A stretch of 64,000 nt of DNA, from the UHGV virus genome UHGV-0287696; one strand, 5' to 3'. A model generated the notes under the pieces. That model was given only the letters and a program-made list of their open reading frames with translations, did not search any database and had not been told where the DNA came from. The stretch comes from a virus. Numbering within the stretch: the stretch's first letter is position 1; every line of letters begins with the position of its first letter. Positions 1,283 to 49,494 of the stretch are shown here, piece after piece. A program made the position numbers and the translations under genes.

Positions 1283-1493
1283 CCACCCAAATAGTCCAGA
1301 AGATACCCTCCGGTGTGAGGGTATTGGCAGGAGCAGAAAATGACCACGATAAACGCTACGAATGTAGCGATATCCGCACTATACGACGCGGAACTTTCAT
1401 GGGGTGGATTAATAATCACCACAGCCATATTAGCCGCTGCGGCTTTCGTCATCGCGCGTTGGTTTTAATTTTACTTTTTTGCGTCTCTAAGGT

Positions 1494-1943
1494 TTGCAAA
1501 TGGAAATTTATTTGTTGAACGCATCTTCTAAAGTCGGTGAGCGACAAGCTGCCGATTTACTCAAACTACACTACCGTTACTTAGACCACCAGGCCACATT
1601 ACTGAAAATCAAAATGTCGGTGCCGAAGTTAAATGCGCGACAGCTGATCGAAGGTAACTGCATAGTTCTGGTGTATCAGGATGATGTCGCGGTAGGATAC
1701 TGTAGTTATCGGAATCGTAACGGTTCACTTAAGATACGTTCGGTATACGTGCTCCCAGACTATCGTCAACGGGGTGTAATGAAAGAGATTTTCAAAGCAA
1801 TTGCAGCTGATGAAGTTTTCGGCGAGATTGTTACTGGCATGTATACGAAATGTAAAGAAGCAAAAGAGTATTTCATCCGACGCGGCTATCAGGCGGTTTA
1901 CTCACGCGATCGTGAGTGGGTCGATTTTAGCAAAACATTCTAA
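1494..1943 (+). CDS. GNAT-family N-acetyltransferase
   Basis: Acetyl-CoA-binding-like motif LPDYRQRGVMKEIF after a beta-strand-rich core (VAVGYCSY...LKIRSVYV). Confidence 0.45.
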   Translation: MQMEIYLLNASSKVGERQAADLLKLHYRYLDHQATLLKIKMSVPKLNARQLIEGNCIVLVYQDDVAVGYCSYRNRNGSLKIRSVYVLPDYRQRGVMKEIFKAIAADEVFGEIVTGMYTKCKEAKEYFIRRGYQAVYSRDREWVDFSKTF

Positions 1944-2009
1944 AAACAATAAAGCTCTCTTGGCGTACCTCACTATGAGTGTGAGAAATTTACGTCAGGA
2001 GAGCTAATT

Positions 2010-2255
2010 ATGTTAAAATCGTACGGAGTGGGTGGTTTGGATACGAGTATTTGTTGGAAGGAATACGAACGTGCGAAAGCGTTCTTACAGCATCCCAATG
2101 TGGGGACAATAGGTAAGGTCTGTTTCGGCAAACCTTCACTGACGGCTTGTATCCAAGGGGCTTTAGGGACGTTGCCACCCGAATCACATTTCGAGCCTGA
2201 GGAGAATATGAATGTTCACAGAGAACCCATCAATTTACGGCATACCGTTGAATGA
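2010..2255 (+). CDS. hypothetical protein
   Basis: ORF with GGAG upstream of the ATG. Confidence 0.3.
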   Translation: MLKSYGVGGLDTSICWKEYERAKAFLQHPNVGTIGKVCFGKPSLTACIQGALGTLPPESHFEPEENMNVHREPINLRHTVE

Positions 2256-2580
2256 AATTGATATTCTGCAAATTTGTTATCAGTGCGGTGACTTCGGTAA
2301 GACGCAAGTAACGCCGTTAGTTAAGCTTTTAGGTTACTTGCCTGAAATCGAGTTGCCTTTTGTTAAACCCAGTTTAGTTCGTCGCGCATCGTGTCGTGAA
2401 GCTTATTTGCTCTGGAAACACAATATTTCAGTAGAGAAGGTCTGGGACCGTATGAACGATCATCAGTTCCGTGAGCAGGTCGTGCACACGCTTAACTTGG
2501 CGCTGACTATGCAACGCCTGGGCTTACAACACGAGGGTTTAGAAGCGGCGGTCAAGCAATGGATTACGAAAAATCGATAA
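2212..2580 (+). CDS. hypothetical protein
   Basis: ORF with GAGGAG upstream; overlaps the previous ORF in another frame. Confidence 0.35.
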   Translation: MFTENPSIYGIPLNEIDILQICYQCGDFGKTQVTPLVKLLGYLPEIELPFVKPSLVRRASCREAYLLWKHNISVEKVWDRMNDHQFREQVVHTLNLALTMQRLGLQHEGLEAAVKQWITKNR

Positions 2581-2604
2581 TGGGTAAAACATATATCGCT
2601 ATAC

Positions 2605-3165
2605 TTGTCGAGCTATCAATCGGCGGTACACGTTTTAATACTACACATCAACTCCGGGCGTTTCGTTATGTTAACGGTACGTAAAGAATCTGAAATTGGT
2701 AACGATCTTTTTAATGCACCCGAAGACTATAAAGTCGTTACCATTAATTGCGTAGGAGCGATGGGTCGCGGTATTGCGCTCGCGTGTCGTGAACGCTACC
2801 CTAACCTTTACCAGGATTATCGTAAGCGGTGTCGTGAAGGCGAAATTAAGATTGGAAACGTTTACGTTTACTCTGACGAAAAGTGTATCTTGCTCCCCAC
2901 GAAAACCCATTGGCGCTTAAAGTCCCAGGTTTCTTATGTTACTGCGGGCATTACCGCACTAGCAGACTGTGCTGAGGATCTAGATACCAGCGTTGCTATC
3001 CCTCCACTGGGGATGGCAAATGGGTGGTTAGATTCCTGGGAAAGACAAGAAATCTTTTTGTGGCTTTACAAAAAACTTGAACCGAGGAGACAACACTACA
3101 CGTTATACTTACCTGATAAGTTGTACCAAGAAGCAGAGTCATTAATTCCAAACTCTTTTAAATAG
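2605..3165 (+). CDS. macrodomain protein (TARG1/DarG-like ADP-ribose-binding or hydrolase fold)
   Basis: NDLF...VVTINCVGAMGRGIALACRERYP and later PPLGMANGWLDSWE match the TARG1-type macrodomain pattern as I recall it. The true start may be the internal ATG at 2668. Confidence 0.65.
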   Translation: MSSYQSAVHVLILHINSGRFVMLTVRKESEIGNDLFNAPEDYKVVTINCVGAMGRGIALACRERYPNLYQDYRKRCREGEIKIGNVYVYSDEKCILLPTKTHWRLKSQVSYVTAGITALADCAEDLDTSVAIPPLGMANGWLDSWERQEIFLWLYKKLEPRRQHYTLYLPDKLYQEAESLIPNSFK

Positions 3166-3265
3166 ATATTATCATTAGGGCACACAACAAAGGAGTATTA
3201 GCTGTCCGCGCCGTCATTTCGTCTTACGGAATACGGAAATGTATAAATCCAACTGGAGAAACAAA

Positions 3266-3964
3266 ATGTTTCGTATCTTCTTTCTTTTACTGGTAACACT
3301 TTTCGCGTTTAACGCACAGGCGTCAACGTCAACGCCACATTCTAAGCATCAGCGTGAGTTTGCACAAATCCAACATCGGTTCGAAAAAGTCAGCCCGTTA
3401 ATTGTGGAAATCTCACGAAAGCAGGGCGTTGATCCCAAGCTGATGATTACGCTGATTTATCGTGAATCGCGTTTTGATCCCAAGGCTTACAACAAAAGCT
3501 CACGAGCACATAGCCTGGTACAAATGCTTCCAAGTACCAAGCGTAATCTGCTAAAGCTTTATGGAAAAGAATTAGGTCTTAGTCAGAACGCCGATTTGTA
3601 TAATCCGCGTAACGCTGTTTTGCTGGCTACCGCGTATGTTAAACATCTTGAGAAGGGGTTAACCAAACGACTCAAACGCAAGCCCACCATGGCTGAAATT
3701 GCGTTAGCTTACCACTGGGGTGAAAGTGGCGCTCACACGCGAATCAAAAGCAAATCTCGAGCAGCACAACGAGAAATGGCAGGCTTTATGAAAGACGCCG
3801 CGTTCTATAGCGCGAAAATCGATGTGCCTGTTGTTGTGGGCTCGGCCCCACGTCAGCTTGCGTTTGCGAAGAAAACACCACGTCAGATTCAACTGGCGGA
3901 AGTTAGTAGAATTTGGGATACGATAAACACGAGTTTTCCAATCAATAGAGGAGTTACCCTTTGA
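3266..3964 (+). CDS. secreted lytic transglycosylase (SLT domain), possible endolysin
   Basis: N-terminal signal peptide MFRIFFLLLVTLFAFNAQAS; SLT motifs RESRFDP (catalytic Glu-Ser), SLVQMLPST, AYNK. GGAG lies upstream of the ATG at 3266; the ORF track starts at 3239. Confidence 0.6.
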   Translation: MFRIFFLLLVTLFAFNAQASTSTPHSKHQREFAQIQHRFEKVSPLIVEISRKQGVDPKLMITLIYRESRFDPKAYNKSSRAHSLVQMLPSTKRNLLKLYGKELGLSQNADLYNPRNAVLLATAYVKHLEKGLTKRLKRKPTMAEIALAYHWGESGAHTRIKSKSRAAQREMAGFMKDAAFYSAKIDVPVVVGSAPRQLAFAKKTPRQIQLAEVSRIWDTINTSFPINRGVTL

Positions 3965-4470
3965 GCATCGTAGTAACCGATTGGTATAAAGGCATTACAA
4001 AAGCCGCACAATTGACCGCGAAAGACGTTTACAGTATCGTCCGAAGCAGTATCGAAGACGAGATTAAGTCGGATGAAGAATTCGCTGAGAAACACGAATT
4101 TTACGATGCTTTACCCACAGCATTCGGCGATGATGAAGAAGAAGGTTTAGAGTTTGACTGGAACGTCAACCTTGCCTTGCTGTGGATTTGTGGTTTACGG
4201 CCAACGGTAAAAGAAACCGAAGAAGGAAAAGTCTTGCTTTGGAATTTTACCGGGCAGTATAACCGTAATTTAGTCTTTAAACAGGCGTATATGGACGCTA
4301 CTGTAGAACTTCAAAATCTACTGCTTGGCGAAAACACATACTGTCAACGCAGTTTCTTAACGATTCTGGAAAAACTTGTGTCGACACACAAAGTCTGGCG
4401 TAAAGAAGACGCCCCGGAACATATGTTCATTTTAGAGTACGCTGTCATTCCAAATCAGCCGTTCTTCTAA
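3961..4470 (+). CDS. hypothetical protein
   Basis: ORF translationally coupled to the upstream gene and followed by a hairpin terminator. Confidence 0.4.
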   Translation: MSIVVTDWYKGITKAAQLTAKDVYSIVRSSIEDEIKSDEEFAEKHEFYDALPTAFGDDEEEGLEFDWNVNLALLWICGLRPTVKETEEGKVLLWNFTGQYNRNLVFKQAYMDATVELQNLLLGENTYCQRSFLTILEKLVSTHKVWRKEDAPEHMFILEYAVIPNQPFF

Positions 4471-4476
4471 TCCCTA

Positions 4477-4514
4477 CCCCTTACCCTATACGGTGTAAGG
4501 GGTACTTTTATTTT
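4477..4514 (+). terminator. intrinsic terminator
   Basis: Hairpin CCCCTTAC...GTAAGGGG followed by TACTTTTATTTT. Confidence 0.5.
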
Positions 4515-4536
4515 CATTCCCTAAAGGAGCAGAGTT

Positions 4537-5016
4537 ATGATAAAATTCATTTGGCGTTATCCAACGCGTTTTTGGTTTGTGGTACTTGAACTGTGTATGG
4601 TTCTTGTAGCGGTTACTTTTGTCGAAGCGCCCGCCTCGCAGTTGGCCATTTTCTGCCTTTTCGTGACTGTCCCTGTATGGGTGATTGCGAAGGTTATTAA
4701 GTTCGTCATGGTGTGTTGGGCAAATTATACCTGTCCGTATAAGCCTAAACAAATCATGAAATGGCTGATGTATATTGAAGAACGTTTACCGGCGCAACAT
4801 AAATTACTGGGCTGGTCGTCAATGTTGGATATTGCGCTAGAAACCAATGCAAAGTTCCCCGGTGCGAAAAACCCGTATTTGTTGATGGCGGTAATTGTTG
4901 CACAACAAAAACTGGTAGGCGATCGTTGGTTGCCAGAAGAAGCGAAAGCGTATATCCGTAAACATCCAAAAGCTTTTTACTCGGTAGGACAATGGCGTAA
5001 CTTGCCTTTATTTTAA
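4537..5016 (+). CDS. multi-pass membrane protein (holin-like candidate)
   Basis: AGGAG upstream; two or three hydrophobic helices (FWFVVLELCMVLVAVTFV, LAIFCLFVTVPVWVIAKVIKFVMVCW). Confidence 0.45.
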   Translation: MIKFIWRYPTRFWFVVLELCMVLVAVTFVEAPASQLAIFCLFVTVPVWVIAKVIKFVMVCWANYTCPYKPKQIMKWLMYIEERLPAQHKLLGWSSMLDIALETNAKFPGAKNPYLLMAVIVAQQKLVGDRWLPEEAKAYIRKHPKAFYSVGQWRNLPLF

Positions 5017-46996: not shown

Positions 46997-47290
46997 ATGT
47001 CTATTCTAGATAAAATCAAACAGCGGCACGGTATTCCGACTGGGAAAAATATTACCCAGCAAAACGTGGAGGGATACAGTCCCATTCAACGTACCAACTA
47101 CGTGTCTTTAGGTAATACTGTCGAATTAGCAACGGAGATTGTGCATGGTCTGATTCGCGGTAACTCAGGAATGTCTGACCGTATCGGTGATCAGAAACTG
47201 CTGAAACGTGATATCGCAGATCTGGTGGGCGCGCGTTTGTACGCGATGCTTCAGGCGAACATCAGCACGAATAAAGAGGTTAAACAATGA
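46997..47290 (+). CDS. hypothetical protein
   Basis: ORF with GGAG upstream. Confidence 0.35.
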   Translation: MSILDKIKQRHGIPTGKNITQQNVEGYSPIQRTNYVSLGNTVELATEIVHGLIRGNSGMSDRIGDQKLLKRDIADLVGARLYAMLQANISTNKEVKQ

Positions 47291-48747
47291 TCAGTTTATA
47301 CTCGCTGAATGCGGTTACTAACGCCATGAAACTGTGCAAACAGCATAATGTTCAGCTTGGCACAGACGTTGACTCTCCAGTTGATTTGCTCAACCGTGCG
47401 GTCGACCCTACCCGCGTTTTCGATACCACAATCACCGACGAACAGTTCTTCCAGGAACTACCCGCGATTACGCAGCTTAAACGTCCGGTAGACGGTACGG
47501 CAGAAGCTTCGATTATTCGTGACGGCGCTGTTGAAGTTGAAGCACTGCGTGTTGACGATCATGAAACCACGTTATTCGAACTGAAGAACATGGCCATTCA
47601 GCGTTGCAACGGGATGCTGGATTTTGCCCGTAACGTTGTTCAACCGTTTGTGCAGCTGGTTATCCAAAATAACACGATTGAAGATGTCAAACCGTTGGTC
47701 GAAGACTGGAACCTGATTCCGGTAGGTATCGATCCGTGTGTGGATTCCCCAGTTGTCCAGGCGCTGATTCAAGAAATCGCCAACCCGATGGGCAACGGTA
47801 CGACTTACGACCCGATCAAGTTCGATGTACCGACCGACATCGAGATTCCGGAAACAGGTGTAAAAGCGTATGATGAACTGGTACGTAAATTACTGAACGA
47901 CCTGAATCTCAGCATGTACGATGCAGCAAAACTTCTGCTGGCAGGTAACTACACCGTACCTGTTGCAGATAAAGCACCGGAGATGGTAAAAGAACGTGTT
48001 CTGGTACTGCTGTTGTCTTCGTTCTTCATTGAACGTCCGTGGCCTGACTCAGGTGTTGACGCCCTGAAATGGAAAGCGGAAATGGGTCGTGCCTATTACA
48101 CGTCTATCGGTTGGGTATACGGTTTCGAAAAAGCGGTGGCTAACCGTGTCGCCACAGGTAACATCGTTTACTCTTACGATACCAACGAGAAAAACGTCTA
48201 TATCTGTCAGGAAACGATGGATGACTACCTGGAAAAAGGTGGTATCGTTGAAGCCCTGTTGGGTGCCATTTACCTGATGGACGAAGGCGACTATAACGTT
48301 TCCGCACGCGTGGCGTCTCTGCTGGAAAACCAGAAAGCCTACGTTGAAGCTTACAATCGTCGTGCAATTATCGTTCAGAAACGAAATGAACTCGACTGGG
48401 TAAGTCGTAACCGTCAGGCACTGAAAACAGCGTTCTCGATTGCAATCGACCAGCTCGACCAGGGCTACCTGACTGTTGGCGAGCTGACGCGCACTCGCGA
48501 AGAAGTCAAACAGGTTGTTATGGGGATTTGTGATGATTTCTTCGTCAACGCAGACGAAGACATTACGTTGTTTATCATCCGGACTGCATGTAACTCCGTA
48601 TTCTGCGCCTACGAAATCGATCCGCTGATGCGTGCGATTCATACCGCGATGATTGAGAACACCGATCCGGCAGAAGCCGCAACCAGTTGGATGATTGACT
48701 ATGTACTGAACTGGATTGCAGGTTCAGTATTTGTCGACAAACTTTAA
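47287..48747 (+). CDS. hypothetical protein
   Basis: ATGA overlap with the upstream gene; AGAGG upstream. Confidence 0.45.
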   Translation: MISLYSLNAVTNAMKLCKQHNVQLGTDVDSPVDLLNRAVDPTRVFDTTITDEQFFQELPAITQLKRPVDGTAEASIIRDGAVEVEALRVDDHETTLFELKNMAIQRCNGMLDFARNVVQPFVQLVIQNNTIEDVKPLVEDWNLIPVGIDPCVDSPVVQALIQEIANPMGNGTTYDPIKFDVPTDIEIPETGVKAYDELVRKLLNDLNLSMYDAAKLLLAGNYTVPVADKAPEMVKERVLVLLLSSFFIERPWPDSGVDALKWKAEMGRAYYTSIGWVYGFEKAVANRVATGNIVYSYDTNEKNVYICQETMDDYLEKGGIVEALLGAIYLMDEGDYNVSARVASLLENQKAYVEAYNRRAIIVQKRNELDWVSRNRQALKTAFSIAIDQLDQGYLTVGELTRTREEVKQVVMGICDDFFVNADEDITLFIIRTACNSVFCAYEIDPLMRAIHTAMIENTDPAEAATSWMIDYVLNWIAGSVFVDKL

Positions 48748-48759
48748 CGCGCTTAGGAG

Positions 48760-49494
48760 GTGATCGTGAGTGCGATTGAAACAGCCCGTCGTGACCCTAC
48801 TAAGGTTCATGCGGACTTGGTAAATAACGGCACGGTCACTACTACCAAAGGGGGATGTTACATTTACATCCCCGTTGGGTTTGTGGCGAAAGAGTTGGCG
48901 GTTATTTCTTCTACGGTAACAATTGTAGGGATCTTTGCGATTTCTACCGACCGTAAAACATATGGGGTGTCCAGCGTTACAACGCTTATGGAAATTACCC
49001 CAACGGCGTTTGAAGAGATCGACGTCTTTGGTGTTCCTTATTACGAATTTCGTTTTGATCCCGGTACAGTGGTTTTCCCCAACCGCAATTTACAGGTGTT
49101 GTCTCACCCTATTTACAACATTGCGTCGTATATTTACGACTTTGGTAATCGTCCTTTCTGGTTTACTGCAGCGGATGATGCTGAACTCTTGGCACCTGAT
49201 AAAGTCAAGAAATGGAACGGTTTTACTGTATTTGCCGATCAGATTACCGCTGACGTTTACGCAGCACACACACAGCGTAAAGTAGGTGATCCGAGAACGT
49301 TCTTCCGTTACACGCTGAAGAAAGATAGCGATCTTAACAACCCTGTGCAGTTTATTCCATTGCGCAGTGGTTCACTTAACAAAACGTCGAGACTGGCGAA
49401 ACTTGCAGACGTAGAACTTAAACGTGGTATTCGTTCTGCGCTACAGGTTGACCCAGTGCGTGCCGAACCGCTCGAAGATTTGTTTATGAGGTAA
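48760..49494 (+). CDS. hypothetical protein
   Basis: GTG start with AGGAGG upstream. Confidence 0.4.
   Translation: MIVSAIETARRDPTKVHADLVNNGTVTTTKGGCYIYIPVGFVAKELAVISSTVTIVGIFAISTDRKTYGVSSVTTLMEITPTAFEEIDVFGVPYYEFRFDPGTVVFPNRNLQVLSHPIYNIASYIYDFGNRPFWFTAADDAELLAPDKVKKWNGFTVFADQITADVYAAHTQRKVGDPRTFFRYTLKKDSDLNNPVQFIPLRSGSLNKTSRLAKLADVELKRGIRSALQVDPVRAEPLEDLFMR

Follow-up and report, generated by a model that had tools for sequence, protein, structure and literature searches.

The gene at positions 2668 to 3165 of the window, by which we mean the whole 64-kb stretch of viral DNA analyzed (UHGV-0287696), most probably (at roughly 85%) encodes a stand-alone DarG2-like macrodomain of the AdfM family, that is, an orphan antitoxin of a nucleus-forming jumbo phage (chimallivirus). 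The assignment stands on the family, fold, active-site conservation, orphan architecture, and positional orthology observed for this gene. AdfM (anti-DarT factor macro) comprises phiKZ gp104, PhiPA3 gp108, Goslar gp83, and Asesino gp217 (Morgan et al., Cell Rep 2026; PMC13309987). Among these homologues, enzyme activity is documented for phiKZ AdfM, which in purified form strips a TNTC oligonucleotide of the ADP-ribose added by DarT2 and which fully rescues the toxicity of DarT2 in E. coli; counter-defense is documented for phiKZ and PhiPA3, the AdfM deletion mutants of which are restricted by DarTG2; and nuclear localization is documented for phiKZ, PhiPA3, and Asesino (gp217), the GFP-tagged AdfM of which concentrates in the phage nucleus, localization being what was assayed for the Asesino protein (PMC13309987). 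The AdfM family, DNA de-ADP-ribosylation, nuclear import, and the anti-DarTG2 role were thus already published in 2026, and there is no new principle here. With the present gene, AdfM reaches one more lineage of Seoul-like jumbo phages, which lack PhuZ and probably infect Salmonella. The analysis also indicates that a first-pass annotation made from the raw sequence had correctly spotted a genuine anti-defense enzyme.

The first-pass annotation had placed the gene at 2605..3165. An open reading frame with these bounds is present on the + strand and its translation holds both of the peptides cited there, and TTG at 2605 was rejected as the start codon. For each of the 48 database homologues (48/48), the alignment begins with the Met at 2668, and the lengths are about 161-166 aa, with unconserved extensions in two. 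In a relative whose protein is 90% identical, found on a 226-kb contig of the Salmonella enterica assembly GCA_014613015.1, the TTG is replaced by CTC and the upstream in-frame stretch ends with TGA directly before the ATG. From the lengths of the homologues and the CTC and TGA in the relative, we conclude that the coding sequence is 2668..3165 and encodes 165 aa:

2668..3165, + strand: coding sequence for the macrodomain (AdfM-like, DarG2-type), 165 aa and stop codon
2605..2667, + strand: spurious 21-codon N-terminal extension, really intergenic (CTC and TGA in the relative; found in no homologue)

The latter segment falls inside the intergenic region preceding the macrodomain gene (2581..2667, 87 nt). 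This region is approximately 80% conserved with the relative, near the value for the coding sequence (84%). No sigma-70-like promoter was found in 2581..2667, which may contain a phage-RNAP promoter or a translation signal. In the sigma-70 promoter scan, sites were no commoner than in shuffled controls; terminator-like sites numbered 7 against 2.6 +/- 2.0 in controls, with no pattern linked to the macrodomain gene; and neither tRNAs nor Rfam families were detected across the window. Compared with the relative at 84% nucleotide identity, the macrodomain coding sequence shows 46 synonymous and 16 nonsynonymous codon changes, implying that the gene is under purifying selection. Recent horizontal acquisition was considered and rejected, as the GC content of the gene (43.6%) lies within that of the window (46.0 +/- 3.3%).

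The claim that the protein is a TARG1/DarG-type macrodomain was borne out by the Pfam, PHROG, PDB, PADLOC, and NCBIfam searches, all far beyond chance. Pfam Macro matched with an E-value of 1.5e-6, above the gathering score, and phrog_335 with an E-value of 1e-35. In a phmmer search against all PDB sequences, the best match was the DarG macrodomain of M. tuberculosis (5m3i; E = 2.4e-26), followed by T. aquaticus DarG with E = 1.9e-21 (5m31/5m3e) and by a DarTG fusion from Thermosipho with E = 2.8e-11 (7omu); the next macrodomain family after DarG was Poa1p, with weak E-values of 0.02-0.05. A single scan with the PADLOC DarG model gave comparable E-values of 4.8e-37 for the protein, 4.4e-39 for phiKZ gp104, and 1.3e-33 for Asesino gp217, and the protein covered positions 7-152 of the 329 in the profile. 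The NCBIfam model antitoxin_DarG was matched over profile positions 7-156 of 338 with an E-value of 3e-36 and 125 bits, below the curated cut-off of 250. Over an equal region, the DarG-profile score was 125 bits for the protein and 212-236 bits for cellular relatives. The AF2 model (pLDDT 93.3, pTM 0.89) adopts the macrodomain fold, and its top Foldseek matches were 5m3e, 5m31, and 5m3i (E of about 7e-14, TM 0.77-0.86), with TARG1 being the second-closest solved family. Altogether, the sequence, profile, and fold evidence supports the grouping of the protein with DarG macrodomains, not with other macrodomain families.

The same searches bear on a housekeeping role, in which the protein would be an Appr-1''-p phosphatase or O-acetyl-ADP-ribose deacetylase of the MacroD/Poa1p/YmdB type and act on small ADP-ribose metabolites, not on DNA. 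Many GenBank homologues are labeled 'Appr-1-p processing protein' or 'phosphatase', PHROG 335 is labeled 'phosphatase', and the weak phmmer matches to Poa1p point in the same direction, but the best similarity of the protein is not to the MacroD/Poa1p subfamily, and we regard such a role as very unlikely. The assignment to AdfM is of value for annotation in this respect, as homologues still carry the labels 'hypothetical', 'phosphatase', and 'Appr-1-p processing protein'.

Run exhaustively over 1.84 billion cluster representatives, phmmer recovered 5,293 relatives at E <= 1e-3, 2,032 of which were at E <= 1e-10. The nearest relatives outside the protein's own clade share 41-48% identity and are a mix of short stand-alone macrodomains and proteins of 330-390 aa. 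With the DarG model, the macrodomain part of the latter reached 212-236 bits, and one such protein spans almost the whole DarG profile.

Asesino gp217 and the protein are 61% identical over the full length (E = 3e-73), and their genes occupy equal genomic positions with equal flanking genes. Based on this identity and the shared position, we regard the protein as an AdfM orthologue. The identity to SPN3US gp070 is 65%, and that to phiKZ gp104 is 41% (E = 1.6e-29). Like the known AdfM proteins, which are stand-alone chimallivirus macrodomains of about 160-166 aa, the protein combines a DarG2-like fold and sequence with the active-site Asn and Lys in a stand-alone architecture of about 160 aa; its chimallivirus origin is likely, judging from clade membership. 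Two differences from phiKZ AdfM were found. The import of phiKZ gp104 is PicA-dependent and lineage-specific, with a recognition region at aa 66-115 and with surface features serving as the lineage-specific signals (PMC11087766), and the protein lacks the phiKZ-specific insertion inside this region. In addition, the second loop of the protein bears Trp120, whereas phiKZ AdfM has Gly.

We counted the conservation of the active site over 27 homologues and mapped the residues of T. aquaticus DarG (TaqDarG) through alignments. G30, G33, G35, T78, K79, P112, G115, and G119 are invariant across the 27 homologues; of these, G30, G33, and G35 lie in the first glycine-rich loop and P112, G115, and G119 in the second. 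The elements of the active site are as follows:

2746..2748, + strand: codon of Asn27, equivalent to TaqDarG N22 and phiKZ AdfM N23, substrate-positioning; N in 26/27 homologues
2755..2772, + strand: first glycine-rich loop, G30-A-M-G-R-G35, predicted to bind the ADP-ribose phosphate; aligns with TaqDarG G25-G30
2899..2913, + strand: T78-K79-T80-H81-W82; T78 and K79 invariant (27/27)
3001..3030, + strand: second glycine-rich loop, P112-P-L-G-M-A-N-G-W-L121, closing over ADP-ribose; maps to TaqDarG G117-L123

K79, in the motif PTKTHW, is the predicted catalytic Lys and aligns with TaqDarG K80, TARG1 K84, and phiKZ K78. TaqDarG W83 has been proposed to stack on thymine, and its counterpart in the protein is W82. 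The K80A mutant of TaqDarG is inactive (PMC5179494), and activity is lowered by N22A in TaqDarG (PMC5179494) and by N23A in phiKZ AdfM (PMC13309987). The TaqDarG residues contacting ADP-ribose or required for activity were listed by Jankevicius et al. (PMC5179494), and their counterparts in the protein are given below:

TaqDarG T20: T25
TaqDarG N22: N27
TaqDarG K29: R34 (conservative)
TaqDarG T79: T78
TaqDarG K80: K79
TaqDarG H82: H81
TaqDarG W83: W82
TaqDarG G117: G115
TaqDarG G119: A117 (Ala likewise in the enzymatically active phiKZ AdfM)
TaqDarG N120: N118
TaqDarG G121: G119
TaqDarG G122: W120

All of the listed residues have a matching or conservative counterpart, apart from G122, which is replaced by W120. 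This Gly-to-Trp change in the mobile loop is the one active-site difference that may matter for function. Trp120 occurs in 24/27 clade sequences, while both DarG (G122 in TaqDarG) and phiKZ AdfM have Gly. It is unlikely, albeit conceivable, that the SPN3US/Asesino-type subclade with the Trp loop (GMANGW) is not a simple copy of phiKZ AdfM and has a shifted or broadened substrate range (other DarT variants, RNA-ADPr, or protein-ADPr) or a role in long-term phage carriage. We flag this Trp-loop subclade of AdfM for biochemical comparison.

The first-pass annotation had pointed to a catalytic Lys/Asp pair of the TARG1 type, of which the Lys stands (K79 equals TARG1 K84 and is invariant in 27/27) and the Asp does not. 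D122, in the motif GWLDSW, aligns with TARG1 Q128 and TaqDarG P124, and the position is Asp in 3/27 homologues and R or K in 17/27; thus, D122 is neither equivalent nor conserved. TARG1 D125 itself aligns on the invariant G119 (the numbering of the TARG1 sequence used is self-consistent for K84 and D125). Human TARG1/OARD1 (4J5Q/4J5S) belongs to the same macrodomain subfamily, shares the catalytic Lys, and is the second-closest solved family, but the identity is about 19% and the Lys84/Asp125 pair is not reproduced in the protein. The main known substrate of TARG1 is protein Glu-ADPr. Instead of or besides acting on DarT2 lesions, the protein could remove ADP-ribose from protein or RNA in the manner of TARG1, opposing other host ARTs (mRNA-targeting, CmdT-like) or tuning an ART of the phage itself. 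Against this, TARG1 D125 falls on Gly119 and so lacks a counterpart, no ART gene adjoins the macrodomain gene (the rest of the window was scanned in part), and, according to the authors of the AdfM study, the best alignment of the phage macrodomains is with DarG2, an enzyme acting on DNA (PMC13309987). We consider a TARG1-like function decidedly unlikely.

The DarG2 antitoxin of DarTG2 (T. aquaticus and M. tuberculosis; 5M31, 5M3E, and 5M3I) has a full length of about 340 aa and pairs with DarT. In contrast, the protein is phage-encoded and lacks both the C-terminal DarT-binding domain and an adjacent darT, and no ART or DUF4433 match was found among the neighbors of the macrodomain gene. The protein is thus an orphan antitoxin, not a member of a TA pair, and cannot be called a bona fide DarG. 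The predicted role has a strategy, the neutralization of DarT, in common with AdfN (T4 gp30.3 and other phage NADARs), AdfA, and AdfB. AdfN is an orphan antitoxin-like eraser of DNA ADP-ribosylation as well, with a NADAR fold, specificity for DarT1 guanine-ADPr, and no activity against DarTG2 (PMC11825919), and AdfB binds DarT directly (PMC11481870).

The first-pass annotation had also entertained the binding or degradation of ADP-ribose-derived signals. On such a reading, the protein would bind or hydrolyze immune signals of this kind (Thoeris gcADPR) and serve as a sponge rather than a DNA repair enzyme. The match in this direction is far weaker than that to DarG, the conservation of the catalytic Lys and Asn speaks for a glycohydrolase of the DarG type, and neither the literature nor the genomic context lends support, so that this idea found no backing and appears extremely improbable.

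The AdfM reading, by which a macrodomain of a virulent phage removes DarT-type ADP-ribose from DNA, was among the proposals of the first-pass annotation and is supported by the orthologous chimallivirus family, which does so (PMC13309987). On this reading, host DarT2 would attach ADP-ribose to thymidine within the TNTC motifs of single-stranded phage DNA. The protein would then bind ADP-ribose via the two glycine-rich loops and Asn27, and Lys79 would cleave the ribose-thymine bond to restore unmodified DNA. Because the protein has neither the C-terminal DarT-binding domain of DarG nor a darT neighbor, it would act catalytically on the lesion, not by binding DarT. As the phage is probably of the nucleus-forming type, we add a compartment-import step to the mechanism proposed earlier: the protein would be imported into the chimallin-bounded phage nucleus, the site of the replicating genome, and there clear the modification made by a small amount of leaked-in DarT2. 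For this protein, the activity, the substrate, the localization, and the relevance in the probable Salmonella host are those predicted by analogy to the homologues.

The window derives from a phiKZ-like jumbo phage and is collinear with the region at about 170-234 kb of Salmonella phage SPN3US and also with Erwinia phage Asesino. Among its genes are those for an SbcC/SMC-like protein, RNase H, a UvsX-like recombinase, thymidylate synthase, the tail sheath, and a tail fiber of 2,374 aa, and two genes of the multisubunit-RNAP beta type lie side by side. Split multisubunit RNAP beta genes are typical of chimalliviruses. By blastn, the RNAP genes share approximately 75% DNA identity with Erwinia phages Stratton, phiEaH2, and Asesino and approximately 73% with SPN3US-like Salmonella phages. 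In a megablast search of positions 1400-5000 against the phage collection, no match was found, and none reached >=85% DNA identity; the phage belongs to an undescribed lineage with no close sequenced relative in the collection searched. The local gene order (SMC, small ORFs, GNAT, small ORFs, macrodomain, and SLT transglycosylase) recurs in SPN3US and Asesino as well as in two uncultured relatives. The immediate neighbors of the macrodomain gene are a conserved hypothetical gene with no Pfam match and the SLT transglycosylase gene. The latter (3239..3964, + strand) lies downstream and codes for a transglycosylase that has an SLT domain and a hydrophobic stretch at the N-terminus (FRIFFLLLVTLFAFNAQA) and whose Asesino orthologue is annotated as 'putative endolysin'.

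SPN3US, Asesino, and their relatives constitute the PhuZ-less clade of Chimalliviridae. A chimallin nucleus is built by Asesino (PMC11724907), and SPN3US has been found to possess a diverged chimallin (PMC9365700). Neither Asesino ChmA gp39 nor its SPN3US orthologue YP_009153316.1 (66% identical) matched the 64-kb window by tblastn, and the genes for both sit in a genome region outside that matching the window. The tblastn searches of the window with phiKZ ChmA, PicA, gp068, and gp070 gave no matches, a negative that carries no information because phiKZ ChmA misses every Salmonella phage too. As neither chimallin nor PicA was located in the window, nucleus formation by this phage is predicted from clade membership. 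A 486-aa ORF at 47287..48747, which had no PDB or Pfam match, was considered as a candidate for chimallin and dropped because the ChmA orthologues are located outside the region of the window.

The SPN3US chimallin is given as YP_009153538 in bioRxiv 10.1101/2024.12.31.630880. RefSeq lists this accession as a 'virion structural protein' of 240 aa (ACQ60_gp022; SPN3US NC_027402.1, 220023..220745), and an 87%-identical homologue of it is encoded at 48766..49491 (+ strand) of the window. The protein 66% identical to the GFP-verified ChmA of Asesino is YP_009153316.1 (ACQ60_gp244, 617 aa; NC_027402.1, 15768..17621). The citation looks like a numbering mix-up, as the gp numbers in RefSeq run opposite to the original ones.

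In an exact look-up in public assemblies, the protein itself was not on record. At least 157 sequence variants are 95-99% identical to it, and many of them (e.g., EDU0148448.1 and EGI8965188.1) reside on contigs of 220-227 kb in Salmonella enterica isolate assemblies; the 90%-identical relative (GCA_014613015.1) falls in a separate cluster. The representative of the cluster carries N27Y at the active-site Asn, a change found only on one 1.4-kb contig. The occurrence of the variants on contigs of Salmonella isolates indicates that the window belongs to a lineage of Seoul-like jumbo phages that is widespread and gets sequenced along with its host, in line with what has reportedly been described as a 'persistent virulent phage'. 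Salmonella is the probable host, and a literature search on DarTG2 in Salmonella found nothing specific.

The first-pass annotation had noted a GNAT acetyltransferase gene two genes upstream as a possible functional partner. The GNAT was confirmed, the coordinates being 1500..1943 instead of 1494..1943, and the functional link was rejected as unsupported. This GNAT shares 37-39% identity with SPN3US gp075 and Asesino gp212, is syntenic only within the SPN3US/Asesino clade, and is separated from the macrodomain gene by two to four variable small genes. As the genomes of this clade are syntenic as a whole, the co-occurrence of the two genes is uninformative. There is no GNAT near phiKZ gp104, for which the function of AdfM was demonstrated, and the macrodomain neighborhoods of RAY, Paul, PhiEaH1, LucasX, and JustBecause are GNAT-free. 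Altogether, a GNAT lies close to the macrodomain gene in 2/8 phage lineages examined, and the two GNATs are unrelated by BLASTP. The other one is from Serratia phage Moabite (locus L003, 3523..4432), in which the GNAT gene (gp058) overlaps the gene for a DarG-like macrodomain (gp059) by 38 nt, suggesting co-translation. The Moabite GNAT has no BLASTP similarity to that in the window and may represent an independent pairing, for which a functional link is conceivable.

The AdfM study covers chimalliviruses only (PMC13309987). DarG-like macrodomains of about 35-42% identity were also seen beyond the known chimallivirus genera, in phiEco32-like podoviruses and large Streptomyces phages, namely Escherichia phage Paul (Kuravirus; locus L011, 2474..2914) and Streptomyces phage JustBecause (locus L014, 2438..2893). 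The JustBecause protein is annotated as 'ADP-ribosyltransferase' and is in fact a Macro domain (Pfam E = 5e-13). In Erwinia phage RAY (locus L010, 2492..3849), the gene following that for the macrodomain (gp153) weakly matches a SLOG-family (YAcAr) Pfam model with an E-value of 1.3e-4, below the gathering score. Associations between SLOG and macrodomains have been noted in NAD/ADPr conflict systems.
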